A program made the position numbers and the translations under genes. Positions 24,285 through 55,288 of a stretch of 64,000 nucleotides of DNA are shown here, piece after piece. The notes beneath the pieces are model-generated. The model did not search any database. It saw only the letters and a list, made by a program, of their open reading frames with translations, and was not told where the DNA came from. The number at the start of each line of letters is the position of its first letter. The stretch's first letter is position 1. Source of the DNA: Acidimicrobiia bacterium (GTDB lineage Bacteria; Actinomycetota; Acidimicrobiia; Spongiisociales; ZC4RG35); contig JANQOU010000002.1 of assembly GCA_028285585.1 (NCBI GenBank), positions 203,263 through 267,262 on the forward strand, read 5' to 3'.

Positions 24285-24302
24285 CGTCTCCTTCCGACCG
24301 AT

Positions 24303-24357: not shown

Positions 24358-24872
24358 TGATCCATGACGACGTCCATTCGATCAGTGAGGCTCATGCCGC
24401 TCACCTCGTCGATCTCACCCTTGTGACCGCATCCACGGAGGGACAAGACGCGCTGACCAAAGACGATCAGACCGTCGAGACAAAGGCCACCACTCGCCGC
24501 TCAGTCGCACTAGAGGCCTCAGGACACAAGCCCGACTTGCTGGTGGTTCTGTCGCTGGATCCAGAGACCCTTCAACCGACACTCGAATACTTCGGTCCAG
24601 CAGCACCTGTATGGCAGATTGCCGGCAAGCCACAGAAGATTGGTCAGCGGCAGGTGTCACTCTCGAAACTGCCCTCAACTCATTAGCGGCTCCCGTCCCT
24701 TCGTTTGGTGGGGCTAAGTAGACAGAACACGAACCACGCCAGAGCCCTCGCTGGACGCCTCCAACACACACTGACGCATAACGTCCGACGCCCTGCCCGG
24801 TCAAGTCGCCGATGTGTGCCGTTGTGCCTGTCTGATGGAACCTGCGTCGTTTCGGTGACGTTCTTGAGGGGA

Positions 24873-26042: not shown

Positions 26043-26215
26043 CAACGCACGAAGCCTCGGCTGCCAACCCGCCCACAACCGGTAGTGCAAGCGCTCGCCC
26101 ACTCCGACTGCAAGACGAGGATTGCCGCGGAGATCGGAGGCTGGGACTCAAGTTGAGCAAACAGTCGGCCGAGCGGCCAGACAGATATTCGGATAATCGG
26201 AAACGTCAGTAGAAC

Positions 26216-26262
26216 GATGACAGACTCGAACCGCCGACCCCTGCCTTGTAAGGGGGGCAATC
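26216..26262 (-). repeat. Degenerate direct repeat of the 3' roughly 48 nt of tRNA-Val. Putative attR of an integrated islet.
   Basis: tgac(a/g)gactcgaaccgccgacccctgccttgtaaggg is identical to tRNA-Val positions 29031..29069 apart from one mismatch. The flanks are diverged. Confidence 0.65.
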
Positions 26263-26339
26263 AACAGCCGGGGAGGGCCCATCGTGACGGGCTTTCTCGC
26301 CAATCGGTGGCCTCCGGGGGAACACGAAACGAACCTTCC

Positions 26340-27134
26340 CTATCCACCCTCGGTGCGCTTGACCATGTACAGGAAGAACTGCCCCTCCCATCTCTTCTCG
26401 ACAACACCGTCGGCAGACAGCCGATCCAGAGTTTCCTTTGCGCTTGCATCGAGGGCCTTGTGAGCCTGGCCTCGATACCTCCCCATCGGTATCTCGGCAC
26501 GGTGGGCCATCACATCAGCTAACTCCCCCACGGAAGTCCACTCCTCACCATAAACGGTCTCACCGAATGTCGAGTTCTGGAACTCCTCGCCAAAAACGTG
26601 ATCTAGCCAGCCACGAAAACGCTGTTCGGCTCGCCAGGAAATGGCCCATTGCGCAGCAAGTCCGGTAAGCACGACGAGATAGATCATGTTGAAGTAGGTG
26701 GACCAACTCGACGGCCCAATGTCAAGGAAGAGTTCTTCGAAAGATGACCGCTGAGTCCATAGAAAGGTCGTGAGAGCGGCAACAGATCCATACGGGATCA
26801 GCACGCGATTTCGATAGCTGGCCACGCTCTCGCGCCGTGCCGTAACGCTCGCTGCCTCCCTGGCTGGGGCGTTTGGGCTTGCGGGTCGAGTAGCAGCTTC
26901 AATGAGCTTCTCTAGGCTCGCCTGAGGCAACGGCACGAGCGGAGCGGGAGCTTTCAGACGTTGCCTGATGTCGAGAACTTGGCGGAACAGCTCTTGGTCT
27001 GTTTCTTCGCCGTCAACGGCTTGATGATCCATCAACCATTCATCGACCGCGCTTTGTACCTCGTCGATGGTGTCTCCGGAGACAATCACGCCGAGTTCTG
27101 CTAGCTCCTGAACCCCGTCTTCAAGATGTCCCAC
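26340..27134 (-). CDS. Hypothetical 2-TM membrane protein with an acidic N-terminal domain and a C-terminal soluble domain, islet gene 3
   Basis: 264 aa. TM1 is VAALTTFLWT and TM2 is MIYLVVLTGLAAQWAISW. No known motif. Confidence 0.45.
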   Translation of the reverse strand: MGHLEDGVQELAELGVIVSGDTIDEVQSAVDEWLMDHQAVDGEETDQELFRQVLDIRQRLKAPAPLVPLPQASLEKLIEAATRPASPNAPAREAASVTARRESVASYRNRVLIPYGSVAALTTFLWTQRSSFEELFLDIGPSSWSTYFNMIYLVVLTGLAAQWAISWRAEQRFRGWLDHVFGEEFQNSTFGETVYGEEWTSVGELADVMAHRAEIPMGRYRGQAHKALDASAKETLDRLSADGVVEKRWEGQFFLYMVKRTEGG

Positions 27135-27436
27135 TCCAGATCCTTCCGCGACCGATTGCTACGAACTGCATACCCCCAAGCTACGCCGATGCTTTAGAGC
27201 TAGAGGCGGCGGAGTAGACAGCTGGGTTCGACCCCGGCGCCCTGGCCGAAGCCCGAGAGAAACGCCGGGAGGAAGCGCTGGCCCTCGTGGAGTGGTTCCG
27301 GGGCCTCTGAGGCCACCATCGGTACCGTCCGAGATCCACGGGAGCCACAGGACGGTACCTCCCTGGCCTCGACGACCCCTCCGGGCTATTCGGGGGCCTA
27401 GAGGTAGCTAAGGGTCGCCCGGAGGACTTTCTTGGA

Positions 27437-28210
27437 TCAGTCGAGGAGTCGACGACGGACCACCTCTTCCTGCCCGAGATGGGTGATCCTGTAGTCGTCG
27501 GACTCTACGAAGCCGTGTACAAACAACCGGGCAACTAGAGCGTTAAGGGTCCGCCGCAGATTTGTACGCATTGTCGGTCGAACCCAGTCTCTGAGATTTA
27601 TATACGAAACGCGTTGCGGCTCCTGCCAATACAGCAAGACCAGCACGTAGTCGGAAGCGGGGAGGTCCCTAAGGATGACCGGAAAGTCGTCCATAACCTG
27701 GATGGCCGGGATGGCCTTGGCCATGATTCCGTCGATGGCAACTTGCACTTCGTCATGAGTGATAGTCGAGTCCTTCTCACGGACTAACTCCGCAAGAACC
27801 CAGTCCATGCAATGAACCACCAAAGTGGCATCCTGAAGACCGGCATCGACAGGTCCCAGATGAGCACTGTCCCTCTTATTCCGGATGTCGTATATCAGCC
27901 TGAGGGTCCTTGGGATGTGTAGACGGATGGCGTCGCTGTGCGAGCCGTTCCGAGGAAGGTTCCCGAAATCTCTAACCAGAGAATCAGAACTTGGCAACGT
28001 GTCCCCGATCGGGGTGTAGGACCCTGTGGTTTCGAACTGGAGTATTCGAAAGACCGCCTCGCTGAAGCGCCCTCCTTCGACACGGTTTGGCCGATGGTCG
28101 CTCCGCGCGAATCGGTCCTTTGCCTCTTGGTATGAGTCGGCCAGCTCCTCGACCAGAACGACTGGCACACCGGAAGCCTTCAGGCCGCGGGCAATCTCAT
28201 CAAGAGTCAT
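27437..28210 (-). CDS. HEPN-like (R-x6-H) domain protein with a C-terminal winged-helix-like domain, islet gene 2
   Basis: LIYDIRNKRDSAHLG fits the HEPN Rx4-6H motif. The C-terminus (YINLRDWVRP...LRRTLNALVARLFVHGFVESDDYRITHLG) is wHTH-like. It overlaps the upstream gene by 11 nt. Confidence 0.45.
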   Translation of the reverse strand: MTLDEIARGLKASGVPVVLVEELADSYQEAKDRFARSDHRPNRVEGGRFSEAVFRILQFETTGSYTPIGDTLPSSDSLVRDFGNLPRNGSHSDAIRLHIPRTLRLIYDIRNKRDSAHLGPVDAGLQDATLVVHCMDWVLAELVREKDSTITHDEVQVAIDGIMAKAIPAIQVMDDFPVILRDLPASDYVLVLLYWQEPQRVSYINLRDWVRPTMRTNLRRTLNALVARLFVHGFVESDDYRITHLGQEEVVRRRLLD

Positions 28211-28817
28211 CCGACTGGCCAGCCAGCCTCAATACCAGCTCCTTGAAGTCATCTTCCCTGCCTGCCTTGAGGTCCACTCGCTTCGACCTTGTGGGCCCAA
28301 GGTACGACACCGAAGGGTTGGCCCTTATGTACCTAGAAAAGTTCGTGTCGGCTGCCTTAAACGCCTTGGCAGACGAGCGGGCGTCCTCAGAAGAAAGGTC
28401 CTGACCCAACCCCAACCTATGGGCGCCTGCCAGCAGTGTGGTTAGCGCGATTGCTCTCTCCTTCGTGTTGTCGCCGAGGTCACGACCTCGGACGTTGAGA
28501 CCTACGCGCTGGCTGTCGGCTTGGTAGAAGAAGACTTCCTTTAGATGCTCGACCGGCACCTCTGAATTTCTCGACAGCTCGTCAAAGAAGCCCCCTTCCG
28601 AAACCCCTAGCGACTCCTGGTCTGACTCTGGCTCCGCCTTCCGAACCGGTTTACCGGGCGGTGAAGGAGGCTTGACGTCGGAGGGTGCAACTCCCTCGGC
28701 AAAGGCGAGCTTGAGGCCTTCGCTTTGCAGATGCTCTGGTAGCTCAGCTGCCAGAACGTCCTCATATGCCTTTCTAAGACGGTCCGCAACTGATTCTTCA
28801 CTTCCCATGCTTGGCAA
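28200..28817 (-). CDS. Hypothetical protein with a Pro/Glu-rich N-terminus and a conserved-looking C-terminal domain, islet gene 1
   Basis: 205 aa. It starts 208 nt downstream of the tRNA-Val 3' end. Confidence 0.4.
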   Translation of the reverse strand: MPSMGSEESVADRLRKAYEDVLAAELPEHLQSEGLKLAFAEGVAPSDVKPPSPPGKPVRKAEPESDQESLGVSEGGFFDELSRNSEVPVEHLKEVFFYQADSQRVGLNVRGRDLGDNTKERAIALTTLLAGAHRLGLGQDLSSEDARSSAKAFKAADTNFSRYIRANPSVSYLGPTRSKRVDLKAGREDDFKELVLRLAGQSDDS

Positions 28818-29024
28818 TTCTAGGCAGTAATCACATTGTTGTCATTCGATGAAGCCGGATGTTGTCGCTCGTCAAGGGGAGCCACGGGGGAGCAAAAACC
28901 CTTCGGGGAAGCACCGGGGAGCACTAGGTGTACGAGGGTCGCAAGGCCCTGTATAGGTCTCGGACCACCGAAAGAGGCCGACGGGACGGGCCTTTCTGGC
29001 CTCTCGACCCGTCGTGACGGGTTG

Positions 29025-29098
29025 TGGGCGTTGACGGACTCGAACCGCCGACCCCTGCCTTGTAAGGGCAGTGCTCTAGCCAACTGAGCTAAACGCCC
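29025..29098 (-). tRNA. tRNA-Val (anticodon TAC)
   Basis: Cloverleaf GGGCGTT/AACGCCC acceptor, anticodon loop CTTACAA, GGTTCGAGTCC T-arm. CCA is not encoded. Confidence 0.9.
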
Positions 29099-29140
29099 GG
29101 GATCGGCCAGATTCTACGAATGGGTCGGAGTTGCGCCCAC

Positions 29141-30265
29141 TCAACCGGCGATCAGATCGCCGAGACGCTCCGCTTCGATGCCGATCTCACGAAGGCGGCC
29201 GGTGGGTGGCTCGTGGAAGCCACAGAAGTAGAGGCCGCGCATCGACGTCTGTTTGCCCGAGGCGAGTGGCCGACCTTGGTCGTCGAGCAGGTCGGCTCTT
29301 TGTCCGAGCAGATCGCCCACACCCGGCCGGTAGCCGGTGCCAAATATCACAGCGTCGTAGCGCTCGGATGCACCGTCGGTGAACACCACTTGGTCACCCT
29401 CGAACCGCTCCACACCAGGGCGAGCCTCGATCAGCCCCTTCTTCAGAGCAGCCATCGTTCCAACATCGAGCAGCGGAATCTTTCCCTTCTTGGCTATCTG
29501 CTCCAACGGCCCCCAATCGGCAGCAGGGATCCCCACCTTGGACACATCACCGACAAGCAGCCAGAGCAACGGCTTGGAGAGAATGTCGGCCAGACGTGGA
29601 GGGAGGACCGACAGGAACCGGGAGATGGTCAGGATCGGGATGCCCAGGATGTCCCGGGGCACCACCGCAGAAGGGCTGCGAACACTGATGTCGGTCTCGA
29701 CCCCGTGTTCGCCGAGATCGAGGGCGATCTCCCCCGCCGAGTTGCCGAAGCCGACAACAAGCACACGTTTCCCGGCGTAGGGGTCGGCATTGAGATAGTC
29801 GGCGGTGTGGATGATCTCGCCGGTGAAGTCGTCCATCCCGGGCACCTCGGGGATCGAAGGGTGATGGCTCAACCCGGTGGCAACCACCAGGGCCGGCGCC
29901 TGGAACACCCCACCTTGAGCCGTCGTCACCGTCCAGTCGCCACCACTCCCCTCCACCGCGGTCACCTCGCTGTTCAGCCTCACATCGATGCCCTCGTCGG
30001 TGGCGTAGGACACCATGTACTCCGCCACCTGATCCCGAGACGGGTACCTCGGGTAGGTGGAAGGCATCGGGCGGCCGGGAAGACCGGAAGCTCCCCTGTT
30101 GGTGTGAAGATGGAGACGCTCGTAGTGGTTGTGCCAGGCGGGGGCAACTGTGGAACCCTTCTCGAGGACAATCGAGGTGACACCACGTCGTTTCAGGCTT
30201 GCCGCCGTGGCGATTCCGGCTGGCCCGCCACCGATGATCAGGACTTCTGTCTTCTCCATCTGCAC
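29141..30265 (-). CDS. Flavin-containing monooxygenase / NAD(P)-binding FAD oxidoreductase (CzcO-like)
   Basis: [14 protein letters not shown] (FAD GxGxxG) and [14 protein letters not shown] (NADPH GxGxxG). Confidence 0.85.
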
Positions 30266-30424
30266 CGGAGACTACGGCTGAGAAAGGGCCCGGGGACCCT
30301 TACCAAGATTGGGTCTAGCTGCCTACTAAATGCACTGTGGATAAATGTCGATAGAGATATCGACAAATCCCCAAGACTGGCCAGCCCCATTCCTACGCTG
30401 GCCCGGAGCCGGTTAGAGAAGCAT

Positions 30425-31354
30425 ATGGCAAAGCGGTCAATCGAAAGAGAAGTCAGCGACGAGGCGATCCGTCAGTACCTGGACGGCATCGGTGTCTACG
30501 AGCTGCTCACAGCAGAAGACGAGGTTCGTCTCGCCAAGGCCATCGAAAACGGCCGCAAGGCCGAGATCGCCCTCGAGTCCGAGAAGGACCAGTCGAAGCG
30601 ACGCAAGCTGCGTCAGATGGTCCGCGCCGGTGAGGAAGCCCGTCAGCACTTCATCCGGTCCAACCTCCGTCTCGTGGTTTCCATTGCCAAGCGATACGGC
30701 CATGCCAAGCTCCCCTTCCTCGACCTGGTTCAGGAAGGGAACCTGGGCCTGATCAGAGCTGTCGAGAAGTTCGAGTACCGCAAGGGCTTCAAGTTCTCCA
30801 CCTACGCCACCTGGTGGATCCGTCAGGCCATCACCCGAGCGATCGCCGACAAGAGCCGGACCATCCGGGTTCCCGTCCACATGATGGACACCATCACTCA
30901 GATGCACTCTGCCGAGACCAACCTCACCAAGCGGTTGGGCCGCAAGCCCACCGATGAGGAACTGGCCGAGGAGTCAGGCCTGACTGTCGAGAAGATCTTG
31001 GAAGCCCGGAAGGTGGCTCCCGAGCCGGTCTCCATCTTCGAGCCGGTCGGTGAGGACAACGCCACCATCGGCGACTTCATCGAAGACACCGAGGCCGCCG
31101 CCCCGTTCGAGCTGATCGCCTCCAAGCTCAACATCGAGAACCTCAAGTACGTGCTGGAGCGTCTCAACGAGCGGGAGCGCACCATCATCGAGATGCGTTA
31201 CGGCCTGGGCAATCGCGAGCCAGCGACTCTCGACGAAGTAGGCCGTCACTTCAACGTCACCAGAGAGCGGATCCGTCAGATCGAGGCCAAGGCTCTGGCC
31301 AAGATGCGTCACCCCTCGACGCCCGGCGGTCTTCGCGAGCTCGCCGTCTCCTAG
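30425..31354 (+). CDS. RNA polymerase sigma-70 family factor (group 2, SigB/HrdB-like)
   Basis: Region 2 [37 protein letters not shown], region 4 [23 protein letters not shown]. The long listed ORF 29120..31354 is an antisense run-through. Confidence 0.9.
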
Positions 31355-31368
31355 ATCACGACTCGTTT

Positions 31369-31407
31369 GTGTGCAGAAAGGAGTACTCCGTACTCCTTTC
31401 TGCACAC
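31369..31407. terminator. Perfect 18-bp-stem hairpin between convergent sigma-factor and whiB-like genes
   Basis: GTGTGCAGAAAGGAGTAC-tcc-GTACTCCTTTCTGCACAC. No clear U-tract on either side. Confidence 0.55.
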
Positions 31408-40731: not shown

Positions 40732-40820
40732 CTGTGGCAACCAGCTGGGGAGGTTTGTGGCTTGACCTGGGACATCGGGCCGCATTTAAGCGAAGGCGGC
40801 TGCGTGGAACTCGACAACCG

Positions 40821-41375
40821 ATGAAGACGTTCCAAGTAGCAGCTCGCCACCATCACAGGACGGGATTGATGAGAGGCACCAACCGATCTTTCGACATCGT
40901 CGCTTTGACGGTGATCATCCTCGCATCGACGGCATGCGGCCAGCAGGTCGTGGCAACAGCCGAATCGCACGCAGGCTTCATCGGTGGTGAGTGCCGGCCG
41001 ACGATGCCCACCGAGGAGTTCACCCCACCGGAGCCTTACGCCTCCTCGCGGCAGTCCGCAGGGTTGATCTGGTACGGCTCGGATGAGCTCTGGACAGCTC
41101 TGAGCTTGGATGGGAATCACGGCGGACGCAAGAGCGTGTGGTGGAGCGTCAACTTCCCCGGAGGAGCGGTCGAGTCACAACCCGCCATAAGTGTGACCTG
41201 GCGTCAATTGGACGGTGACACGGTCCACACTCACGACAATGACGGAACCAACGCCTACACCGGAGAGGACGGCTGGTTCATGATCTCGGGGATCGACCCG
41301 CCCGATGCGGGTTGCTGGGAGGTAACGGCCACCTACAAGGGCGCTTCCCTCTCCTACGTCTACGAGAAGGCTTGA
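40821..41375 (+). CDS. Lipoprotein, hypothetical
   Basis: Lipobox ILASTACGQQ. Confidence 0.4.
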   Translation: MKTFQVAARHHHRTGLMRGTNRSFDIVALTVIILASTACGQQVVATAESHAGFIGGECRPTMPTEEFTPPEPYASSRQSAGLIWYGSDELWTALSLDGNHGGRKSVWWSVNFPGGAVESQPAISVTWRQLDGDTVHTHDNDGTNAYTGEDGWFMISGIDPPDAGCWEVTATYKGASLSYVYEKA

Positions 41376-41387
41376 CGAATGCTTGGC

Positions 41388-41419
41388 GGGGTGGGCTATC
41401 GATTCCGATAGCCCACCCC
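41388..41419. terminator. Bidirectional hairpin terminator between convergent genes
   Basis: GGGGTGGGCTATCG-attc-CGATAGCCCACCCC, a 14-bp perfect stem. Confidence 0.55.
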
Positions 41420-41437
41420 ATACCTTTAGGTAGCGGT

Positions 41438-42799
41438 CTAACCGTTGGCGATGGCCAAGAAGCCAGGAGCGAAGTCGAGATCGATGACTCTCTCCAATGT
41501 CAGCGTGTCGCCAACTGCGACCTCAACCACCTGATCGGTGGCAGGGTCAGTGACGTAGACGTGGTCACCGGTCACGGCAACCTGACGCCATGGCTGCTCG
41601 GTATCGCCTTCTTCAAACGGGCTGACGATCTCGAGAGAAGCGATCACTGAGCCGTCTCCGGGCTCAACCAGATGGATGAACCCGTCGAGGGTCAAAACGA
41701 TCAGGTGTCCCTCCGAATCGAATACGACACCGAAGGTGGCGATGCTCCGCTCGAAGTCGATCGATCGAATTTCCGCGTTTTCGGCATCGACCACAAGAAG
41801 GTGACGGCTCCCTTGTGGCGCAGCCAGCATGGTTTTGTCTGAGGAAACTCGCAGGAACCACGCCCTAGCCGGACCGAACCCGAACGGGTCTTCGTCGTCG
41901 ATCTCCGGGTATGTGAGATAGGTGCCAGTCCAGGTTCCAGCATCTTCTGTCACCAGGACGACGCCGTCACTACAAGCTGACGCAGCGCCGTCGACAAGGC
42001 TCGCTTCACCATGGGTGAGCGGACAGTCGAACTGTGCCTCGACTGTGCCTTCGGCATCGCTGATTCCCACGACGTTGGGAAGCCCCTCCATGTCTTCGGT
42101 GGGCACGGTGACGAAGTAAGCGCCGTGGACAGGCATCGCAAAGCCATGATGAGGCTGGCTGGTCGGCACTTCTGCCATGACGGTCACCTCTCCTTCTTCG
42201 AGGCTTTCCTCAGAGATCACCTTGGCTGTGCCGGTGCCATCGAAGTAGAGAGCATTGACGTGATCGTGGCTGATGAGGTGGGTCGGGTTCGGGCCGTTGA
42301 CTCGACCCAAGACCATTGGCTCAGACGTGTAGTGATGCAGGTGAGTTCCGTGGCCTTCCGACCACACACCGGTATCCACCACCGTCACACCGTCGTCGTG
42401 GCCAGCCAGAAGGAAACGACCCGACTCAGTGATCGACGACGACACGGCCGCGATCGCATCGAGCTCGATCGACTCAGCCGATCCGTCAGCTAGGTCGATG
42501 AAGTGGATTACTGCTTGATCGTGGGCCGCAACGACAAGCAGGCGACGAGCTTGGTCCAACTCGACGACCCCCGCTTCCGGATTCTCGGAAGCGTCATCCT
42601 CGTGGTCGTGGTCCTCGTCGTGATCATGGTCGTGGTCGTGCTCATCTGTCGTCGTCGTGGCTTCTGCGGCAACGGTCGTCGGAACGGTTTCGCTCGACTC
42701 AGAGTCAGAAGGGCTGCACGCCGCAACGACGACAACTAACAGGAGCAGGAGGCCAAAGAAGAAGGCTGGCCGGGCCAGGTTTCTTGATTCATATCGCAT
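41438..42799 (-). CDS. Beta-propeller-like lipoprotein with an N-terminal His/Asp-rich (DH)n tract, possibly an AztD-like metal chaperone
   Basis: Lipobox VVVAACSP. EHDHDHDHDEDHDHEDD tract, then His-rich loops (GHGTHLHHYT, HLISHDH). Confidence 0.4.
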   Translation of the reverse strand: MRYESRNLARPAFFFGLLLLLVVVVAACSPSDSESSETVPTTVAAEATTTTDEHDHDHDHDEDHDHEDDASENPEAGVVELDQARRLLVVAAHDQAVIHFIDLADGSAESIELDAIAAVSSSITESGRFLLAGHDDGVTVVDTGVWSEGHGTHLHHYTSEPMVLGRVNGPNPTHLISHDHVNALYFDGTGTAKVISEESLEEGEVTVMAEVPTSQPHHGFAMPVHGAYFVTVPTEDMEGLPNVVGISDAEGTVEAQFDCPLTHGEASLVDGAASACSDGVVLVTEDAGTWTGTYLTYPEIDDEDPFGFGPARAWFLRVSSDKTMLAAPQGSRHLLVVDAENAEIRSIDFERSIATFGVVFDSEGHLIVLTLDGFIHLVEPGDGSVIASLEIVSPFEEGDTEQPWRQVAVTGDHVYVTDPATDQVVEVAVGDTLTLERVIDLDFAPGFLAIANG

Positions 42800-42861
42800 A
42801 TGTGGCGACCATATCAAGAATGGGAACCATTCTCAAATACATGGAAATGGACTGAGAAACC

Positions 42862-43425
42862 TCACTCCTTGTCGCCGACGAGAGCTTCCTTGACCAGGTT
42901 CATCGTGTCGTAGATCACCGAAGTGTCTTGAAGAGCTCGGGCGACGCTCGAAGCGCCCTCGTATGCCGCCACGACGAAGCGGGCTGCGGACTGGGCGCGA
43001 TCTGACGTGAAGCCTCGATCTTCGAAGGCAGCCGCGATGGTGTCGATCCACGATTGGAACGCCGACTCACCGGCCGTTCGAACCGCTTCGATCCCAGCCG
43101 CCTCCGTCGACGGCACGCCAACGGGACAGCCATACCGATAGTTGGCTTCCTCCATCTCAGTTGCCAGTGCCGTGAAGAAGACCTCTGTCCCGTGGGTTGG
43201 CTCCGCCGAGCTCTCCATGACCGTCGCAAGCAACGTCGCCCCCTCTGCTCCAGCTGCCTCGACGGCAGCGACCGCCAGTGACTCTTTGCCGTCCGGGAAG
43301 AAGTGGTACATCGATCCGGCGGTCACACCAGAAGCCTCGAGGACGTGTTCCACTGTCGACGCCGCCAGGCCGTTCTCGCGGATGCTCTGCGACATGTGCG
43401 TTACGAGCTGATCACGCCGGCTCAT
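42862..43425 (-). CDS. TetR/AcrR-family transcriptional regulator
   Basis: LAASTVEHVLEASGVTAGSMYHFFPDGKESL is the TetR_N HTH. Confidence 0.8.
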   Translation of the reverse strand: MSRRDQLVTHMSQSIRENGLAASTVEHVLEASGVTAGSMYHFFPDGKESLAVAAVEAAGAEGATLLATVMESSAEPTHGTEVFFTALATEMEEANYRYGCPVGVPSTEAAGIEAVRTAGESAFQSWIDTIAAAFEDRGFTSDRAQSAARFVVAAYEGASSVARALQDTSVIYDTMNLVKEALVGDKE

Positions 43426-43546
43426 CGGCCACTCTCCTTTCGTCGAAACCTCGCCACCCCACCCAAGCAGCGCCCAGACGGTTTGCGTGTATCTGTGCAT
43501 CATACTAGAATGATCCTTCTAGTCGATCGAGATCGGAGCAAACAGA

Positions 43547-44025
43547 TGGCAAGCCCAATGGTGGATTTCAAGGCGCTCGAACGCCTCGAGTGGAGCGAAG
43601 TCGAACGGGACAACGCACAGACAGTCGCAGAGTTCGTGCAGCTCTTGATGAATGAGCACGACTTCGACCAGGTGCGAGACAAGTTCTCAACCGAGTCGTA
43701 CATCCAGCACAACCGAGCCATCCCTGATGGCATCGGCGGCCTGATCGCTTACGTAGCGCAGCTTGTGAAACGATTCCCCGGCTACTCCTACGACGTTCTC
43801 CAAATCCTTGCGAGTGGAGACCGAGTCGTGTTCCACAGCCACGTCACCCTCAAGGCAGCGCATCGCGGGAATCAGAAGAAGGGCTTCGTCGTCTTCGACA
43901 TGTGGAAGGTCGAAGACGGCCGAATCGCCAATCACTGGGACGCCCTGCAACCCCTCGACCTCACCAGCCGCCTGATCACCCTGCTGGGCGGAGGACGGAT
44001 ACGAAACGACAACGGCATCTACTGA
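43547..44025 (+). CDS. SnoaL-like / NTF2-fold protein
   Basis: 159 aa from MASPMVD. Pattern YIQHNRAIPDGIGGL...VFDMWKVEDGRIANHWD. Divergent from the TetR gene. Confidence 0.55.
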
Positions 44026-44054
44026 CGCCGACAGCGCTGCCTGAAGCTAGAGGG

Positions 44055-44780
44055 TCATCGGTGGATCTCGCTGGCCATCACCGACGGCAAGCGGACGATG
44101 ATCTCCCTGACTTGTTCTCGAGCCTGCTCGACAAACCGCAGGAACTCTTCGACATCACCTTCGACAACGCGGTCGAAGCGGGGCACCGCCAACCCTGAGG
44201 CACCCTGTGCCATCTCGTTTTCCAGCAGCCAGGCCAACCGCGTGAGATCTCCGGAGATCTGCCGGTACATCCGGAACAAGTACTCATTGCCTGCGCACTC
44301 CGCCAACAAGTCGAAACCGGCGAGCACGGTCATCGCTCTGTGTAGGGCTGTTTCACTCGGACGGCCTTCCTGTGCCTCGGTGTCCATCCGTTCCCGCCCC
44401 AAGGTCCGGAGTCTGGCCATCTGCTCCGAAGTCGCTCTGGCGGTACCGCGGCTGATCAGCTCCGGGCCGAGCATCTGCCAAACATCAAACAGCTCTTCAA
44501 TTGACCTCACCGTCAACGGAGTGACCAGGTAGCCCTGTCGAGGGAGCGTTTGGACGAGCCCGTCCTGGTCAAGGCGGGTAAGGGCACTCCGGACGGCAGA
44601 CAGGCCCATGCCGGTGGACTGGGCCAACCCTCGCTCGGTCACCAGATCCCCGGGTGCGAGTTGACAGGAGATGATGTCGGATCGGAGCCGACGGTAGGCG
44701 GTCTCGCTCAGGGTCGAGCCTGGAGCCGTTTCGGTCCTGTCATATGACGACGAAGCCTCTCGTGCGCGACTGGTTGACAC
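44055..44780 (-). CDS. GntR-family (FadR/FCD) transcriptional regulator
   Basis: N-terminal wHTH (LVTERGLAQSTGMGLSAVRSALTRL) plus an FCD domain. Confidence 0.85.
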   Translation of the reverse strand: MSTSRAREASSSYDRTETAPGSTLSETAYRRLRSDIISCQLAPGDLVTERGLAQSTGMGLSAVRSALTRLDQDGLVQTLPRQGYLVTPLTVRSIEELFDVWQMLGPELISRGTARATSEQMARLRTLGRERMDTEAQEGRPSETALHRAMTVLAGFDLLAECAGNEYLFRMYRQISGDLTRLAWLLENEMAQGASGLAVPRFDRVVEGDVEEFLRFVEQAREQVREIIVRLPSVMASEIHR

Positions 44781-44857
44781 ACTGACATGTCAGTTAGTAG
44801 GTTTTGAAATGTCAAGCCTTTCGGGACACTCAGAGAATGAGGACGAACGTGAAGCTG

Positions 44858-46477
44858 ATGAACATGACCGACTACGAGGAGACACGGACCTCGTTTGCCT
44901 TGGAGGTTCCGGACAGGTTCAACGCTGCCATGGACGTGGTCGATGCGCGAGCCGAAACGGATCCAAACGGTTTGGCTCTGCGGATGGTCGCGCCAGATGG
45001 GCGCACCGCCGATGACTACACGTTCGCCGATCTCCGAGATCGCTCCAACCAGATGGGCCGAGTTCTTGCTGACCTTGGCGCAGCGAAAGGTGATCGAGTC
45101 TTCCTCATGCTTCCCCGGGTGATCGGTTGGTACGACACCATGCTTGGTGCCATGAAGCTGGGGGCGATCCCAATGCCGGGCACAACCCAGTTGAAAGGCA
45201 AGGACATCGCCTACCGGGTGAACCGGGCGGAGGCAACGGTGGCCGTCACTGACCCAGATGGAGCCGCCGTGATCGACACCGTCCGCAACCAGTGCCCCAG
45301 CCTCGAGACCGTGATCGTGGTCGGTGGGGCGCTCGACGGCTGGGTGGATGGCAATACCGCCCGGGACTCGGCGACAGCCGATCCCCTACCGGCCGACCCG
45401 ACTGCGTCTGACGATCCGATGCTCATCTACTTCACGTCGGGAACCACCGGAAACCCGAAAATGGTCTTACACACCCAGGCGTCGTACGGGATCGGCCACC
45501 AGATCACAGCCAGGTTCTGGCAAGACCTGCGACCCGGGGACATGTTCTGGGGGGTCTCCGACACCGGGTGGGCAAAGGCAGCGTGGTCGAAGCTGTTCGG
45601 GCAGTGGTCCCTCGGTGCGACGGTGATGGCGTGGAACGCGACGGGCAAGCCGGACTTCGACCAGATGTTGCAGATGATCGTGGATCACGGCGTCACGGTC
45701 TTCTGTGCGCCCCCGACGATCTACCGCAACTTCGTGACGAAAGACCTGGCGGGGTACGACTTCTCAAAGCTGAGACACTGTCTCGCGGCCGGGGAGGCGC
45801 TCAACCCCGAGACCTTCAACGCGTGGAAGGCCGTCACCGGCACCGAGATCCACGACGGATACGGCCAGACCGAGACTGTCAACCTGCTGGCGAACTACCC
45901 GTGCATGCCGAAGAAGCCGGGTGCGCTCGGCAAGCCAACGCCCGGCATGGAGGTGGCCGTCGTCGACGCAAATGGCACACCCCTTGGGCCGGGCAACGAA
46001 GGCCAGATCGCAGTGAAGGTGGCACCGGAGCGCCCTGTGGGCCTGTTTGTGGAGTACTGGAAGGACCCACAGGCGACTGCAAATGCCCACATAGGCGACT
46101 GGTACCTGACCGGAGACCGGGCCAGCGTGGATGAGGACGGCTACTTCTGGTTCGTGTCCCGGGCTGACGATGTGATCATCTCGGCTGGGTACCGAATCGG
46201 CCCCTTCGAGGTCGAGTCGGTGATCATGGAGCATCCGGCAGTTCAGGAGGTTGCCTGTATCGGCGTGCCCGACCGCGAGCGGGGTGAGGTGGTCAAGGCA
46301 TTCGTTGTGCTTGCCGCAGGCAAAGAGCCAAGCGACACTCTCGCCGCGGAGATCCAGGAGCACGTGAAGGCGAATACGGCCCCCTACAAGTACCCAAGGC
46401 AAGTCGAATTCATCGACGAACTCCCCAAGACCGTCTCAGGAAAGGTCCGGCGCGTGGACCTCCGAGCCCTGAGTTGA
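44858..46477 (+). CDS. AMP-dependent acyl-CoA synthetase (medium-chain type)
   Basis: YFTSGTTGNPK (AMP motif I), GYGQTET, GDWYLTGDRA and KVRRVDLR. Confidence 0.9.
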   Translation: MNMTDYEETRTSFALEVPDRFNAAMDVVDARAETDPNGLALRMVAPDGRTADDYTFADLRDRSNQMGRVLADLGAAKGDRVFLMLPRVIGWYDTMLGAMKLGAIPMPGTTQLKGKDIAYRVNRAEATVAVTDPDGAAVIDTVRNQCPSLETVIVVGGALDGWVDGNTARDSATADPLPADPTASDDPMLIYFTSGTTGNPKMVLHTQASYGIGHQITARFWQDLRPGDMFWGVSDTGWAKAAWSKLFGQWSLGATVMAWNATGKPDFDQMLQMIVDHGVTVFCAPPTIYRNFVTKDLAGYDFSKLRHCLAAGEALNPETFNAWKAVTGTEIHDGYGQTETVNLLANYPCMPKKPGALGKPTPGMEVAVVDANGTPLGPGNEGQIAVKVAPERPVGLFVEYWKDPQATANAHIGDWYLTGDRASVDEDGYFWFVSRADDVIISAGYRIGPFEVESVIMEHPAVQEVACIGVPDRERGEVVKAFVVLAAGKEPSDTLAAEIQEHVKANTAPYKYPRQVEFIDELPKTVSGKVRRVDLRALS

Positions 46478-46513
46478 TCGCGGATCTGTCAGAACCGGAT
46501 TGAGGCACATGCG

Positions 46514-48289
46514 ATGACGAAATGGCACGACGGAGTGAGGTTTCGAGCGGTTCGGCCGGTCAAAGATCCGACAGGCTTCCATCCAGGCGTCAAGCGCGAA
46601 ACGAGAATCTTGCCTGCTGGGTCCACCTATGGCCCCTCCCGACCTGCACCCTTGGGCTCCCGGTGGCACGGGGGCAATCGCCCTCTGCCGGTCGACATTC
46701 AGTTGGACCAGGACGTGTCGATCGAAATGCGCGATGGCGAGTCGATCTACGTCGACATCTTCCGGCCGCCTGGTGCGGTTGATGTCCCCGCCATCGTCGC
46801 GTGGAGCCCGTACGGCAAGCAGGGCGGCTACTGGAGCTATGCACGCGGAAACCTGGGGAAGATGCCACCTCTCGATTGGGTGTCCGGTCTTCAGAAGTTC
46901 GAGGGGCCCGACCCGGCCGAATGGGTGGCCCACGGCTATGCCGTCGTCAACCCCGACCCGCCCGGAACATTCGCCTCGGAAGGCCTGATCCGAACGTGGG
47001 GTGAAGCCGAAGGCCGCCACGTCTATGACGTCGTCGAGTGGTTGGCCGAGCAGGAATGGTGCAACGGCCGTGTCGGAATGGCCGGCAACTCCTGGCTCTC
47101 CGTTTCCCAGTACTTCGCGGCAGCCGAGCGCCCTCCACACCTCGCAGCGATTGCCCCGTGGAATGGGTTCTTTGACGTCTACGACTTCACAGGGCCCGGG
47201 GGTATCCCCGCCCCTCAGTTTGCCGAACTGCTGACAGACTTCCAGTGGGGAACCCGGATGGAGTACCTCCCGACCATGCGCAAGCGCAAACCGTTGAAGG
47301 ACGAATACTGGGAGGCACACGATGCGAAGCTCGAGAACATCGAAGTCCCGGCCTACGTCGCCCACTCGTGGCAAGTCGGGATCCATCGTTGGACGCCTGA
47401 GGTCTTTCGGCTCATCTCTTCTGAGCACAAGTGGCTACGGCTTGCGAACACCCATGAGTGGTACGACCAATACGCGCCTGAGTATGTCGAAGATCTACGG
47501 AAGTTCTTCGACCGCTACCTCAAAGGGCTGGACAACGGATGGGAAGACACACCACGGGTGCGCGTTTCGGTCCTCGACTCTGTTCTGCAGCCTACGGAGA
47601 GCGCCAACCCGCAGCACGCCGACTCGAAAGGATACGAACCGGCCGCAGAGGTTGATCGCCCCGAGCATGAGTGGCCGCTCGCCCGGACCGAGTACGTAAG
47701 GCTCGATCTGGCGCCCAAAGGCCGCCTGGCCGATTCCGGCAAAGTGCCCGCAGACTCAGAGACCTACAGAGCGCTTTGGGGTTCAAAGTCATACCACCAC
47801 ACCTTTACCGAGGACACCGAACTGACCGGCTACGCCACGGCCCGTCTCTGGATAGAAGTAGCCGGGAGAGACGATGCGGACATATACGTCGACCTGTGCC
47901 GACTCGACCGCCGCGGCCGCAGAATCGCTCTGCTCGAGACCGCGTCTCTCCGAGTATCTCACCGAGAGATCGACGAGGAACGCTCGACGGACTTCGTCAC
48001 GTATCACACTCACCGCGAAGAGCAGCGGCTGTCACCTGGGGAGCGAGTCGAGACGGTCATCAGCTTCCCGCCCAAATCCATGAGATTTCGGGCCGGCGAC
48101 CAACTGCGGCTGCGTGTTGCGGGGACTCAAGTGCGTTGGAAGCGGGACCTCTCCGGCGGCATATTCGGCGGGATCCTCGGCACGCTCCTTGCCTCAATTC
48201 CATCCCGCAATCGCGGAGCCAGACACATAGTCCACCTGGGAGGTAGCCACGCCTCCTCGATCACGTTGCCAATTGTCCCGAAGCGGTAG
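46514..48289 (+). CDS. CocE/NonD-family hydrolase (S15 peptidase/esterase)
   Basis: VDIFRP...PAIVAWSPYGK, GMAGNSWL (GxSxG), and a C-terminal beta-sandwich. Confidence 0.8.
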   Translation: MTKWHDGVRFRAVRPVKDPTGFHPGVKRETRILPAGSTYGPSRPAPLGSRWHGGNRPLPVDIQLDQDVSIEMRDGESIYVDIFRPPGAVDVPAIVAWSPYGKQGGYWSYARGNLGKMPPLDWVSGLQKFEGPDPAEWVAHGYAVVNPDPPGTFASEGLIRTWGEAEGRHVYDVVEWLAEQEWCNGRVGMAGNSWLSVSQYFAAAERPPHLAAIAPWNGFFDVYDFTGPGGIPAPQFAELLTDFQWGTRMEYLPTMRKRKPLKDEYWEAHDAKLENIEVPAYVAHSWQVGIHRWTPEVFRLISSEHKWLRLANTHEWYDQYAPEYVEDLRKFFDRYLKGLDNGWEDTPRVRVSVLDSVLQPTESANPQHADSKGYEPAAEVDRPEHEWPLARTEYVRLDLAPKGRLADSGKVPADSETYRALWGSKSYHHTFTEDTELTGYATARLWIEVAGRDDADIYVDLCRLDRRGRRIALLETASLRVSHREIDEERSTDFVTYHTHREEQRLSPGERVETVISFPPKSMRFRAGDQLRLRVAGTQVRWKRDLSGGIFGGILGTLLASIPSRNRGARHIVHLGGSHASSITLPIVPKR

Positions 48290-48387
48290 AGCAGGGCATG
48301 GAGCGTAAATCGGCCATCGCACATTCGACCCCTCATGAGCCGGAGTTTGCCTAACAGGACAGAACGCGAACCAACTCCCCGAGTGGG

Positions 48388-48984
48388 TTGATCCTTGGCT
48401 TTGACAATCTGGGCCGCGATACGCTCCGCGTCGTGAGTAGGCGGTACGTAGCGCTACTGCGCGGAATCAACGTCGGAGGCAAGAACCTCATCTCGATGGC
48501 CGACCTGCGCGGCGAGATGGAGAACGCCGGATACAAATCCGTCCAGACATACATCCAGTCCGGAAACGTGCTCTTCGAGACCGACACCCCACGCGACGAG
48601 TTGGAGAGATCGGTCGAAGCGCTCCTCGCTCAGCGCCTCGGCGTTCCCGTGCTCGTGGTAGTCCGGTCCCACCGTCAACTCGCCAACGTCGTGGCGTCGG
48701 CACCCGAGGCTTTCGGGACTGATCGAGACACCTACCTAGCAGACGTCGTATTTCTGAAGGCACCGCTGACATCGGCGCAGGCGATGGGCGCCGTGTCGCT
48801 GCGCGACGGAGTCGATCGGGTGTGGGCCGGGGCGGGTGTGCTCTACTTCGAGCGCCTGGCGGAACGCATTTCTCAGAGTCGCTTCAGCAGGCTCGTCGGC
48901 ACACCGCAGTACCAGCGAATGACGATCCGCAATTGGTCCACGACCACCAAACTGCTCGCCATATTGGACGAGCGCATAGGCTGA
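48388..48984 (+). CDS. DUF1697 domain protein
   Basis: RYVALLRGINVGGKNLISMADLR...VQTYIQSGNVLFE is the DUF1697 signature. Confidence 0.7.
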   Translation: MILGFDNLGRDTLRVVSRRYVALLRGINVGGKNLISMADLRGEMENAGYKSVQTYIQSGNVLFETDTPRDELERSVEALLAQRLGVPVLVVVRSHRQLANVVASAPEAFGTDRDTYLADVVFLKAPLTSAQAMGAVSLRDGVDRVWAGAGVLYFERLAERISQSRFSRLVGTPQYQRMTIRNWSTTTKLLAILDERIG

Positions 48985-49085
48985 CGGCTCGCGGCAACCA
49001 GCACAAGTGCCGCGATTCGCAGCACACCGAACCCACTCCCTGGTTCGAGAGTGTTGCGTCTCCCACCGACGGGCAGCGAGGCGAC

Positions 49086-49331
49086 GGGCTCGTTTCATGA
49101 CCCTGAGTTTGCAAAGCGGAGTCCTGTAGACAAGGAGGGACACGACGGGCTCGTTTCACGAGCCGGAGTTTGCGAAACGAACCCCACCAGCAACATGCAA
49201 CACGAAAGGGTCATTTCATGACCCAGAGTTTGCAAAGCAAACTCAGTTAGGTCGCCAGCGGCGACCGGCGGTCATCTCATGACCCAGAGTTTGCGAAGCA
49301 AACTCCAAGGAACCGGATTTCATCCGGTTCC
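49086..49331. repeat. Tandem array of four 61-bp units, each with two stem-loops, plus a terminal 10-bp-stem hairpin abutting tRNA-Met
   Basis: Units start at 49086, 49147, 49208 and 49269. Hairpin A is GGGTCAT-ttc-ATGACCC (GGCTCGT-ttc-ACGAGCC in unit 2, a compensatory change). Hairpin B is GAGTTTGC-aaa/gaa-GCAAACTC. The final hairpin is GGAACCGGAT-ttc-ATCCGGTTCC at 49309..49331. Confidence 0.7.
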
Positions 49332-49333
49332 CG

Positions 49334-49408
49334 TGGGCCCTGCAGGATTTGAACCTGCAACCAACGGATTATGAGTCCGCTGCTCTGACCAGATTGAGCT
49401 AAGGGCCC
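49334..49408 (-). tRNA. tRNA with a CAT anticodon (elongator Met or Ile2-lysidine type; initiator features absent)
   Basis: Acceptor GGGCCCT/AGGGCCC, anticodon loop CTCATAA, T-arm GCAGGTTCAAATCCTGC. The 1:72 pair is G-C. Confidence 0.85.
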
Positions 49409-53304: not shown

Positions 53305-53369
53305 CCGACCAACGGACGACGGACGAGTAGCCCGCTCTCAGCGGGCTACTCACGTTTTAAGGTGCCCCA

Positions 53370-53636
53370 ATGACCAACCGGAGCTGCTCTCATTTCGAGA
53401 CGCTGGAGTCGGTTACCGACCCGACATCAACAGTCTGCGATCAATGTGTTGCCTCGGGTGACGTCTGGGCCCACTTGAGAGCTTGCCTGCTCTGCGGCAG
53501 CGTCGGCTGCTGCGACAACTCCAAGAACCGTCATGCCCGCCGCCACTGGGAAGACCACCGGCACCCTCTGATCCAGTCGATCGAGCCGGGTGAGACCTGG
53601 CGATACTGCTTCGAAGACCAGTACCTGGTGAAGTGA
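53370..53636 (+). CDS. UBP-type zinc-finger protein
   Basis: CSHF...C..C......W.CL.CG.VGCC......H...H is the zf-UBP pattern. The stop overlaps the next start (ATGA). Confidence 0.75.
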   Translation: MTNRSCSHFETLESVTDPTSTVCDQCVASGDVWAHLRACLLCGSVGCCDNSKNRHARRHWEDHRHPLIQSIEPGETWRYCFEDQYLVK

Positions 53637-55288
53637 GCGAGAAGAAACCGATCATCCTCGCCGTCGACGACGAGCCCGAGGTGCTGCGTGCCGTGCAGCG
53701 AGACCTCAGGTCGAACTACGCCGCCGACTACCGAATCGTCGCCGCGATCGGTGGGCAAGAGGCCATCGACACCCTCGACGAGCTGGCCCTCAAGGACGAG
53801 CCCGTGGCGCTGATCGTGGCGGACCAGCGCATGCCCGGGGTAACCGGCGTCGAAGTCCTCTCCCGGTCCTTGAGCTACTACCCGAACGCGAAGCGGACAC
53901 TGCTCACCGCCTATGCCGACACCGAAGCCGCCATCAGCGCCATCAACGACGTAGGGCTCGACCACTACATCATGAAGCCGTGGGACCCGCCCGATCAGAA
54001 GCTGTTTCCCATTCTTGACGACCTGCTCTCCGATTGGCAGGCCGGCTACCGGCCTACGTTCACGGGCCTCCGAATCATCAGCCAGGAGTGGTCCCGTGAG
54101 GCCTTCGAGTTGAAAGCGTTCCTGGCCATGAACCAGATCCCATACAAGTCGTTGACTCTCCGAAAGGATGCAGAGGCCGAAGTCCTGATGGAATCGGCAG
54201 GCGCCGCGATCTCGGACCTCCCTTTGGTCTTGCTCACCGATGACTCCCCGATCAAAAGCCCGTCGACCGACCAACTGGCGGGCGCCATCGGCCTCAAGAG
54301 CCACGCCTCCGAGCCTGCTTACGACCTGGCGATAGTCGGCGCCGGGCCGGCAGGCCTCGCTGCTGCGGTGTATGGAGCATCCGAGGGCCTGAGCACCATC
54401 CTCATCGAGGCTTCAGCTCCCGGCGGGCAGGCGGCGCAATCGACTCTCATCGAGAACTACCTCGGCTTTCCAAAGGGGATCAGTGGTGCAGACTTGGCAC
54501 GACGCGCCCACAGTCAGGCGACCCGCCTGGGTGCCGAAATCGTGGTGCCGGCGACTGTGCGCTCGGTGGAACGAAAAGATCCCTTTCGCATCCTGCACAT
54601 GGCTGACGGATCCACGATCACCGCCAAAGCACTGGTGATCTGCAGCGGTGTCGAGTATCGCAAGCTGGAAGCAGAGGGCCTGGACCGGCTGAAAGGAGCC
54701 GGGGTCTACTACGGCACCTCAAACATCGAAGCCACGTCACACCGCGACTCTCCCATGTACGTCGTCGGTGGCGGCAACTCGGCGGGACAGGCAGCTCTCT
54801 TCCTCAGTCGCTTCACCGACTCGGTCACCATCGTCATCCGTCGAAGCGACCTCTCCGAGACGATGTCGCAGTATCTCATCGACAACATCGCGGACAACCC
54901 CGCTTTGACCGTTCTTCCACGGCACGAAGTGGTGGAGGCGAGAGGAGACACCCACCTCGAGTCGATCAACCTCAAGAACCTGGACACGAATGAGGCGACC
55001 GACGCAACGGCGGGAGCGATGTTCATATTCGTCGGTCAAAGGGCTCACACGGACTGGCTGGGCGACCTGGTGGACCTGGATGATGGTGGGTTCGTTCTGG
55101 CCGGCAGTGATCTCGGCTCACTGGCCGGTTGGAACGTGGACCGGGACCCGCTGCCCCTGGAGACTTCGGTCCCTGGCGTGTTCGTGGCCGGCGATGTTCG
55201 TCACGGATCGATCCGCCGGGTGGCCGGAGCCACCGGCGAGGGTGCGACGGCGATTCGATTCGTTCATCAACATCTGGCTTCTCTGTGA
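53633..55288 (+). CDS. Fused response-regulator receiver plus thioredoxin-reductase-like flavoprotein that lacks the CxxC redox centre
   Basis: REC: ILAVDDEP...DQRMPGVTG. FAD/NAD(P) Rossmann motifs DLAIVGAGPAGLAAA and VVGGGNSAGQAALFL. The TrxR CATC position reads GTSN. Confidence 0.8.
   Translation: MSEKKPIILAVDDEPEVLRAVQRDLRSNYAADYRIVAAIGGQEAIDTLDELALKDEPVALIVADQRMPGVTGVEVLSRSLSYYPNAKRTLLTAYADTEAAISAINDVGLDHYIMKPWDPPDQKLFPILDDLLSDWQAGYRPTFTGLRIISQEWSREAFELKAFLAMNQIPYKSLTLRKDAEAEVLMESAGAAISDLPLVLLTDDSPIKSPSTDQLAGAIGLKSHASEPAYDLAIVGAGPAGLAAAVYGASEGLSTILIEASAPGGQAAQSTLIENYLGFPKGISGADLARRAHSQATRLGAEIVVPATVRSVERKDPFRILHMADGSTITAKALVICSGVEYRKLEAEGLDRLKGAGVYYGTSNIEATSHRDSPMYVVGGGNSAGQAALFLSRFTDSVTIVIRRSDLSETMSQYLIDNIADNPALTVLPRHEVVEARGDTHLESINLKNLDTNEATDATAGAMFIFVGQRAHTDWLGDLVDLDDGGFVLAGSDLGSLAGWNVDRDPLPLETSVPGVFVAGDVRHGSIRRVAGATGEGATAIRFVHQHLASL

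Follow-up and report, generated by a model that had tools for sequence, protein, structure and literature searches.

The array described here lies in a 64-kb window, the whole stretch of DNA that was analysed, from an uncultured member of the Acidimicrobiia whose DUF1697 protein finds its best matches among species-representative genomes at 82% identity. The array lies in a gap between two convergent genes. Specifically, a DUF1697 gene identified by Pfam scan (48433–48984, plus strand) runs toward it from the left, and a tRNA gene with anticodon CAT (49333–49408, minus strand) runs toward it from the right. ARAGORN calls this tRNA Met, while it may be tRNA-Ile2. The array is thus on the 3’ side of tRNA(CAT), as the initial annotation of this DNA had placed it, downstream of both flanking genes and outside any promoter. 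An operon for a CoxS/CoxL/CoxM-type molybdenum dehydrogenase starts at 49573, on the far side of the tRNA.

The wider surroundings are those of a bacterial chromosome. Pfam scans covered about 43 of the larger ORFs of the window, including every large ORF at 29–59 kb, and left out about a dozen, which lie in the first 14 kb and the final 2 kb. The scanned ORFs are ordinary chromosomal genes, and none of the approximately 43 encodes an integrase, a transposase, a Cas protein or a partition protein. In the 8.5 kb beyond the 3’ end of the tRNA, where every large ORF was scanned, there is no integrase, excisionase or phage gene.

The array consists of four direct, in-register copies at 49062–49305, spaced by 61, 60 and 61 bp. 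An ungapped alignment defines a core of 37–38 nt in each copy, composed of palindrome A, one base, and palindrome B, and every core is followed by a spacer of 23–24 nt. Palindrome A has a 7-bp stem and a 3-nt loop, with GGGTCAT-TTC-ATGACCC as its typical form. Palindrome B has an 8-bp stem and a 3-nt loop, GAGTTTGC-RAA-GCAAACTC. The core therefore contains two separate palindromes, of 17 and 19 nt, rather than one.

Alignment and folding show that the four cores, to which no strand was assigned, are unequally preserved. In unit 1 (49086–49123) hairpin A is imperfect and hairpin B is degenerate; hairpin A combines a 5’ arm of the unit-2 type with a 3’ arm of the unit-3 type, which results in a C·C mismatch and a G·U pair. 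In unit 2 (49147–49184) hairpin A is perfect, with the sequence GGCTCGT-TTC-ACGAGCC and a folding energy of −11.5 kcal/mol, and hairpin B is degenerate. Hairpin B of units 1 and 2 has two to three broken or wobble pairs and a folding energy of 0 to −4.3 kcal/mol. Both hairpins are perfect in unit 3 (49208–49244), which carries GGGTCAT-TTC-ATGACCC and GAGTTTGC-AAA-GCAAACTC. Unit 4 (49269–49305) has a 6-bp hairpin A with a CTC loop and a perfect hairpin B, GAGTTTGC-GAA-GCAAACTC. Both hairpins are intact only in units 3 and 4, the two units nearest the tRNA.

These measurements refine the initial annotation at several points. The four-copy array that it described is there, with spacing of 61, 60 and 61 bp instead of exactly 61 bp, and the starts that it gave for the last two units (49208 and 49269) omit an extra leading base present in units 1 and 2. 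It had assigned every unit a hairpin A with a 7-bp stem and a TTC loop, a description that fails for the imperfect hairpin of unit 1 and for the six pairs and CTC loop of unit 4. Its second claim, that every unit holds hairpin B, is accurate for units 3 and 4, where the stem is perfect, and too generous for units 1 and 2, where it is degenerate.

The repeat is far more frequent in the sequence than expected by chance. Palindrome B has six matches, compared with 0.02 expected from shuffled sequence; palindrome A has four, compared with 0.24 expected; and the central 18-mer has five, compared with 0.08 expected. The array goes undetected by Tandem Repeats Finder, as its copies have diverged too far. 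A Logan assembly made independently from the same run (SRR20820731) contains the array with every base identical, which excludes an artefact of one assembler. The four units in the MAG and in the Logan assembly of this run represent one population.

The gap contains further hairpins. The spacer between units 3 and 4 carries a perfect hairpin, GGTCGCC-AGC-GGCGACC (49250–49266, no strand assigned; −13 kcal/mol), which is unrelated to hairpins A and B and was absent from the initial annotation. Directly 3’ of the tRNA is a hairpin with a 10-bp stem and a TTC loop (49309–49331, minus strand; −17.6 kcal/mol), followed on the minus strand by UUGGAGUUUGCUU. The initial annotation had located this stem and loop correctly, 1–2 nt from the end of the tRNA, and had read them as a longer version of hairpin A. 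That reading does not hold, as the two hairpins have only the TTC loop and the closing A–T pair in common. The other tRNA of the window (Val) also has its own unrelated hairpin immediately 3’, and we therefore read the 10-bp stem as belonging to the tRNA and not to the repeat. It is probably the terminator or 3’-end hairpin of the tRNA itself, outside the repeat family. The four unrelated palindromes of the gap all have 3-nt loops (4/4), compared with 8/31 elsewhere in the window.

Folding of the whole gap is far stronger than that of shuffled sequences on both strands (z = −6.7 and −7.8). Two stem-loops are predicted just 3’ of the DUF1697 stop codon, before the start of the array, in a stretch that as a whole folds no better than shuffled sequence (z = −1.14). 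The hairpins of the units are short and weak, at −6 to −11 kcal/mol, and the other gene-end hairpins of the window, each with a unique sequence, have stems of 10–18 bp and are much stronger. On the plus strand no T-run follows any unit hairpin; U-tracts are missing from most of the unit hairpins. A GC-rich stem followed by a U-tract is found at hairpin A of unit 3 on the minus strand, where the T-run in TTTCGTGTTG makes it terminator-like by scan, and, loosely, at the hairpin directly 3’ of the tRNA. An array of terminators is possible but redundant; the tRNA has its own strong hairpin. The scan found no promoter-like site.

Differences among the copies bear on whether the pairing is under selection. 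Hairpin A is GGCTCGT/ACGAGCC in unit 2 and GGTCAT/ATGACC in units 3 and 4; two pairs differ and both are compensated. The double substitutions that preserve pairing in hairpin A, pointed out in the initial annotation, are therefore real. The conclusion drawn from them there, selection on structure, does not follow. The covariation is matched by 113 of 500 column shuffles, both double changes are confined to one sequence, that of unit 2, the stem of hairpin A is mispaired in unit 1, and the most conserved part of the core is its middle and not its stems. Specifically, the 18 nt in the middle of the core (the 3’ arm of A and the 5’ arm of B, with the one base between them) are invariant in an alignment of five copies, four from the array and one found outside it, while the outer arms have decayed. 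An invariant middle flanked by decaying outer arms would not be predicted by selection on the two hairpins, and to judge from this alignment it hints at a sequence-specific rather than a structural role for the 18-mer.

Unit 1 is a mosaic. It agrees with unit 2 at nine of 11 informative sites in columns 7–31 and with unit 3 at five of seven in columns 37–61, and the switch point is the loop of hairpin A. As far as the pattern of sites goes, this appears to be the trace left by gene conversion or unequal crossover among the units, and the resulting stem mispairs. Several changes in one arm at once can also come from hairpin-templated (quasipalindrome) mutation; quasipalindrome template-switch mutagenesis is described as an established bacterial mechanism (PMC7202029). 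The compensatory-looking pattern is no proof of selection on pairing, because recombination between units and hairpin-templated mutation can both yield the same pattern. A caution follows from this locus: a pair of seemingly compensatory changes within a four-copy tandem array is no evidence for selection on the RNA.

Cores and spacers differ markedly in conservation. Identity among copies is 74–89% for cores and 23–57% for spacers. Between units 3 and 4, 34 of 38 core positions are identical and five of 22 spacer positions, with the length of the spacer fixed. Homology between spacers is not significant by local alignment and is weak in register (13/23 at best). Judged on these identities, plain duplication of whole units followed by neutral drift would not predict such a contrast; it needs constraint, gene conversion limited to the core, or independent insertion.

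A motif search with mismatches revealed a fifth, partial copy, hereinafter designated U0, at 48333–48350 (TCATGAGCCGGAGTTTGC), which the initial annotation did not list. U0 has the same orientation as units 1–4 and is closest to unit 2 (20/23). It is located about 750 bp from the array in a separate intergenic gap, 44 nt past the stop codon of a peptidase S15 gene and 83 nt ahead of the start codon of DUF1697, in a stretch whose folding does not exceed that of shuffled sequence. The five copies all have one orientation and lie within 1 kb, and the DUF1697 gene is bracketed by same-orientation copies, with U0 upstream and units 1–4 downstream. Motif searches with mismatches and a double-hairpin covariance model run with filters off found only these copies in the 64-kb window, and the same searches found no copy in the 9.5 kb past its left edge. 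The span searched for dispersal is thus 73.5 kb. The count of copies in the genome, which had been proposed as a check on the initial annotation, therefore has a partial answer: five copies in one 1-kb neighbourhood, and none elsewhere in 73.5 kb.

The repeat has no counterpart in the public collections searched. A degenerate 25-mer covering the four units has no match in 185,579 species genomes and metagenome collections. A looser 23-nt pattern gave five viral matches, all by chance and inside coding sequence, and two patterns containing the full palindrome B gave no viral match. No blastn match was found among plasmids and phages. Exact 21-nt searches with three of the spacers found nothing among 2.9 million viral contigs. 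In a scan against Rfam, only the tRNA passes; other matches have E>1 or are antisense to the tRNA. Three exclusions made in the initial annotation agree with these and related results: no known riboswitch or Rfam family (the Rfam scan it had proposed as a check matches the tRNA only), no CRISPR (repeats only 74–89% identical and no cas gene in about 43 scanned ORFs), and no obvious REP (no conserved GTAG/CGTC tag, and copies arranged head to tail). By inspection, GTAG/CGTC is not a conserved tag across units; GACG precedes hairpin A in units 1 and 2 only, in the wrong polarity, and GTAG occurs once, in a spacer.

Several specific identities were considered and rejected. The units are not integron attC sites, since by inspection GAGTTTGC and GCAAACTC fit neither the RYYYAAC nor the GTTRRRY core; no integron integrase is encoded among the approximately 43 scanned ORFs. 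A chromosomal parS was rejected by inspection, the resemblance being limited to an 8-nt half-site in unit 2. The units were also rejected as operators of the neighbouring TetR and GntR genes, whose own promoters carry unrelated palindromes. Peptides of 10–18 aa starting with ATG can be read in some units; coding was rejected by inspection, as unit 2 has no start codon and the differences among copies affect second codon positions.

An origin from the tRNA was likewise rejected. When each unit, the tail and the whole gap were aligned locally to the tRNA in both orientations, no score exceeded that of shuffled sequence (all p>0.1), and the tRNA 3’ end (23 nt, up to three mismatches) occurs once in the window, which excludes a second att copy there. 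The initial annotation had suggested att-site debris from repeated integration at this tRNA. The units do not resemble the tRNA, its end is not duplicated, and no integrase was found among the scanned ORFs; on the other side, synteny with relatives breaks exactly there, as described below, and a link between the array and recombination at tRNA(CAU) is possible.

Relatives were reached through the tRNA. Orthologues of DUF1697 did not lead to orthologous arrays, as they are in other contexts, without the tRNA, the motif or flanking repeats. A scan of metagenomes with the 3’ half of the tRNA yielded 23 loci, four of which (L024, L037, L040 and L044) carry a full-length tRNA that is 100% identical. 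Three of the four retain the order tRNA-CoxS-CoxL-CoxM, with 83–91% protein identity. All four cease to resemble the window from the very first bases beyond the 3’ end of the tRNA, where each has different genes, and none of the four has the array or a match to the double-hairpin covariance model. The array is absent from these relatives as it is from the collections above. Since divergence from the relatives sets in directly beyond the 3’ end of the tRNA, the array lies at a synteny breakpoint.

The distance from the LtrA orthologue to the tRNA is 1.9 kb in L040 and 8.5 kb in the window. Therefore, comparison with the syntenic L040 defines a variable segment on the 3’ flank of the tRNA at approximately 40800–49332 (no strand assigned), and the array is its tRNA-proximal end. 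The assembly graph has a branch inside the tRNA. The shared order of LtrA and tRNA-Cox argues against a chimeric assembly across the tRNA. In L037, an ORF with a phage-integrase SAM-like (integrase N-terminal) domain is located about 80 nt from the identical tRNA; the tRNA site is therefore a likely integration target in some relatives.

We favour, with a probability of roughly 0.5, the reading that the array is a lineage-private palindromic minisatellite, located in a convergent gap at a tRNA flank prone to recombination, that acts at most as a passive back-up barrier. Its units are intergenic and arranged head to tail, and one of them is a mosaic copy. A unit of about 61 bp would have been duplicated head to tail to four copies at the tRNA-proximal edge of the variable segment, and slippage, unequal crossing-over or gene conversion between units would grow and reshuffle the array. 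Maintenance or repair of the palindromes would take place in the DNA itself, for example through hairpin-templated (quasipalindrome) correction, a process that would alter several bases of one arm together and thus mimic compensatory evolution. Pairing has not been maintained throughout, because the two tRNA-distal units have decayed hairpins. Any activity would be passive: the units may serve as back-up, bidirectional barriers to read-through transcription and 3’ exonucleases, positioned between the tRNA’s own terminator and the stem-loops after DUF1697. Against the minisatellite reading, the unit hairpins are weak beside the 10–18 bp gene-end stems of the window and have no T-runs on the plus strand.

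The units may instead belong to a dispersed, species-specific element of the REP, REPIN, MITE or PATE type, with the array as an insertion cluster in a harmless convergent gap; we regard this as unlikely. The single-stranded DNA hairpins would be mobilised by an HUH/Y1 transposase encoded elsewhere in the genome. The RAYT gene, which in REP systems is flanked by the repeats, is usually present once somewhere in the genome, and no Y1 transposase (RAYT) is encoded among the approximately 43 scanned larger ORFs. U0 fits such an element, being a partial copy that likewise lies close behind the 3’ end of a gene, in a different gap, and shares the orientation of the others, as do the 3-nt loops of all four unrelated gap palindromes (8/31 elsewhere in the window). 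Repeated insertion also explains better than duplication of whole units why the cores are conserved and the spacers essentially unrelated. The regular 61/60/61 spacing favours duplication, however, and the 73.5 kb searched contain no copy beyond the 1-kb neighbourhood. Species specificity and accumulation at the 3’ ends of genes are features of REPs (PMC3733652, PMC2817692), but here the unit ends lack a conserved GTAG/CGTC and the copies are head to tail, an arrangement reported to be absent or under-represented for REPs (PMC3733652). Quite unlikely, in our judgement, is a relic of an integrative element that had the tRNA as its former attachment site, in which the palindromes would be leftover sites for integrase arms, an excisionase or a host factor at the tRNA-side end. 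Such a relic would account for the loss of homology past the tRNA 3’ end among relatives with the identical tRNA, each with different genes there, for the integrase-domain ORF about 80 nt from that tRNA in L037, and for an invariant, non-palindromic middle 18-mer that is more like a binding site than a stem. Yet the 8.5-kb variable segment and the other scanned ORFs contain no integrase, excisionase or phage gene, the tRNA 3’ end is not duplicated in the window, the units are unrelated to the tRNA, and viral contigs, phage genomes and plasmids contain nothing similar. Known integrase arm sites are short direct repeats, which tandem 61-bp double palindromes do not resemble.

The remaining readings give the units a function in binding, in RNA or in defence. 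Plasmid centromere arrays such as F sopC are a model for repeated palindromes in phase, and two distinct perfect palindromes per unit at fixed phase, together with the invariant middle 18-mer, recall an operator-like array for one or two dimeric DNA-binding proteins with a centromere-like, silencing or insulator role. This is very doubtful, since half of the sites are degenerate, the array is downstream of both genes and not at a promoter, relatives do not conserve it, no partition gene is among the scanned ORFs, and the own-promoter palindromes of the nearby TetR and GntR genes differ. It is highly improbable that the units are small RNA genes or a structured 3’ trailer of the tRNA, with hairpins selected as RNA, despite the strong folding of the gap on both strands, the position directly downstream of the tRNA on the same strand, and the two compensated base pairs between unit 2 and units 3–4: the strong hairpin with a U-rich tail right after the tRNA should halt most transcription, no promoter-like site or Rfam match was found, the covariation is not significant, one unit has a mispaired hybrid stem, and relatives lack the array. 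A degenerate orphan CRISPR-like array of 38-nt repeats and 23–24-nt spacers is almost certainly not the explanation. The repeat-spacer layout is formally present, with spacers of constant length and essentially unrelated sequence and with degenerate repeats at one end, but there are only four repeats, they are just 74–89% identical and longer than the spacers, no cas gene is among the scanned ORFs, and three spacers lack an exact 21-nt match in 2.9 million viral contigs. Lastly, a recombination system that recognises the double-palindrome unit could be rearranging the accessory segment 3’ of the tRNA, with DUF1697 as a cassette. We consider this a long shot; if true, Acidimicrobiia would have a gene-cassette hotspot of a new, repeat-mediated kind.

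The contrast between core and spacer, the invariant 18-mer and the bracketed DUF1697 gene keep the mobile-element, integrative-relic and protein-binding readings alive. There is no sign of a conserved function for the repeat, which looks like an ordinary lineage-private one. As it stands, it matters little: another private, intergenic palindromic repeat, from an uncultured lineage that has been little studied. If it proved to be dispersed genome-wide or to rearrange the tRNA flank, it would be the first REP-like or cassette-like system described for Acidimicrobiia.

Among known systems, the minisatellite is REP-like only loosely, as a set of short intergenic palindromes. The REP/BIME/REPIN family likewise comprises short, species-specific palindromes just 3’ of genes or in convergent gaps, sometimes in regularly spaced clusters, with transcription attenuation and mRNA 3’-end protection as proposed roles. 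An imperfect palindrome of 20–40 bp is typical of REPs. REPs carry an unpaired GTAG or CGTC tag at one end, number more than 100 copies per genome and form clusters mainly of alternating orientation (PMC2817692, PMC3733652). In contrast, the array has no conserved tag, all its copies are head to tail, each unit has two different palindromes, and copies are confined to one neighbourhood in the 73.5 kb read. Intrinsic terminators are similar in being stem-loops in convergent gaps, and U-rich tracts follow hairpin A of unit 3 and the tRNA-adjacent hairpin on the minus strand; unlike terminators, most unit hairpins have no U-tract and are weaker than the 10–18 bp gene-end stems of this genome.

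Two other systems resemble the array in layout. At E. coli tyrT, tandem 178-bp repeats lie 3’ of tRNA-Tyr genes, each with a copy of the tRNA 3’ end. The array is likewise tandem and directly downstream of a tRNA gene, where transcription terminates, whereas its units have no similarity to the tRNA. Mycobacterial MIRUs occur at many loci per genome, often overlap the flanking stop and start codons, and lack the paired palindromes that make up the units here. With MIRU/VNTR loci the array shares head-to-tail intergenic units of 40–100 bp in a high-GC genome of actinobacterial type, as well as diverged copies and mosaic units such as unequal recombination generates.

The gap between the DUF1697 gene (48433-48984, plus strand) and the convergent tRNA(CAT) gene holds four unrelated palindromes: hairpins A and B of the repeat unit, the spacer hairpin at 49250-49266, and the hairpin after the tRNA at 49309-49331. 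All four (49148-49331) have a 3-nt loop, versus 8 of the 31 perfect hairpins that the rest of the window contains. In many cases the loop reads GAA on one of the two strands, and the sequence GCGAAGC occurs in hairpin B of unit 4. We take such 3-nt loops, GAA loops, and the GCGAAGC motif as a possible sign that these hairpins form in DNA rather than in RNA. Three long perfect hairpins, each directly after a gene, have stems of 18 bp (31369-31407), 14 bp (41388-41419), and 12 bp (53325-53351), and are probably the usual terminators of this genome.

At the other end of the DUF1697 gene, a −10-like sequence, TACGCT, lies 7 nt upstream of the GTG start codon (48420-48435), and TACGGT occupies the matching position in relatives. 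Judged from this arrangement, the DUF1697 mRNA appears to be leaderless.

The downstream flank of tRNA(CAT) differs among related loci. In L037, a metagenome locus with a 100% identical tRNA, an ORF containing a phage-integrase SAM-like domain (174-1001) lies ~80 nt from the tRNA on its downstream side. In two further metagenome loci, L022 and L038, whose tRNAs have their 3' half in common with the window tRNA(CAT), integrase-like C-termini read by eye lie downstream of the tRNA and are oriented towards it. L021, a Logan contig from the same sequencing run as the window (SRR20820731), ends at window position ~49361, breaking off 29 nt into the tRNA. The position of this contig end inside the tRNA suggests that the sample contains a second population with the tRNA in common and a different flank.

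The second tRNA of the window, tRNA-Val (29024-29098), adjoins a stretch (~17000-29000) with slightly lower GC content (0.58-0.60 versus 0.62-0.65), in which high-GC3 ORFs are scarce. The stretch encodes a HipA-like kinase (22841-24055), two MFS transporters, an ArsR-like regulator, a Kelch-repeat protein, and three ORFs without a family; no integrase was found in it. Possibly, the stretch is an old islet associated with this second tRNA. Divergent from tRNA-Val is an ORF of the sigma-70 family, up to 744 aa long (29120-31354, plus strand), in which the sigma domains begin only at residue 449, leaving a long predicted N-terminal extension.

Immediately downstream of the Cox-like operon lies an ORF (53633-55288, plus strand) that joins a response-regulator receiver domain to a pyridine-nucleotide disulphide oxidoreductase, a fusion kept in the relative L040 with 75% identity. 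A 459-aa ORF without a Pfam family (41438-42817, minus strand) carries an 18-nt tandem repeat inside its coding sequence at 42592-42660, with the plus-strand form TCGTGATCATGGTCGTCG.

ARAGORN calls the tRNA(CAT) at 49333-49408 (minus strand) Met(CAT). Compared with reference sequences, it matches elongator Met at 51 of 75 positions, the initiator at 49 of 75, and E. coli ileX, the lysidine-modified tRNA-Ile2, at 61 of 75. Because ileX is the closest of these three references, the tRNA may have tRNA-Ile(CAU) identity, a lead resting on sequence likeness to ileX.
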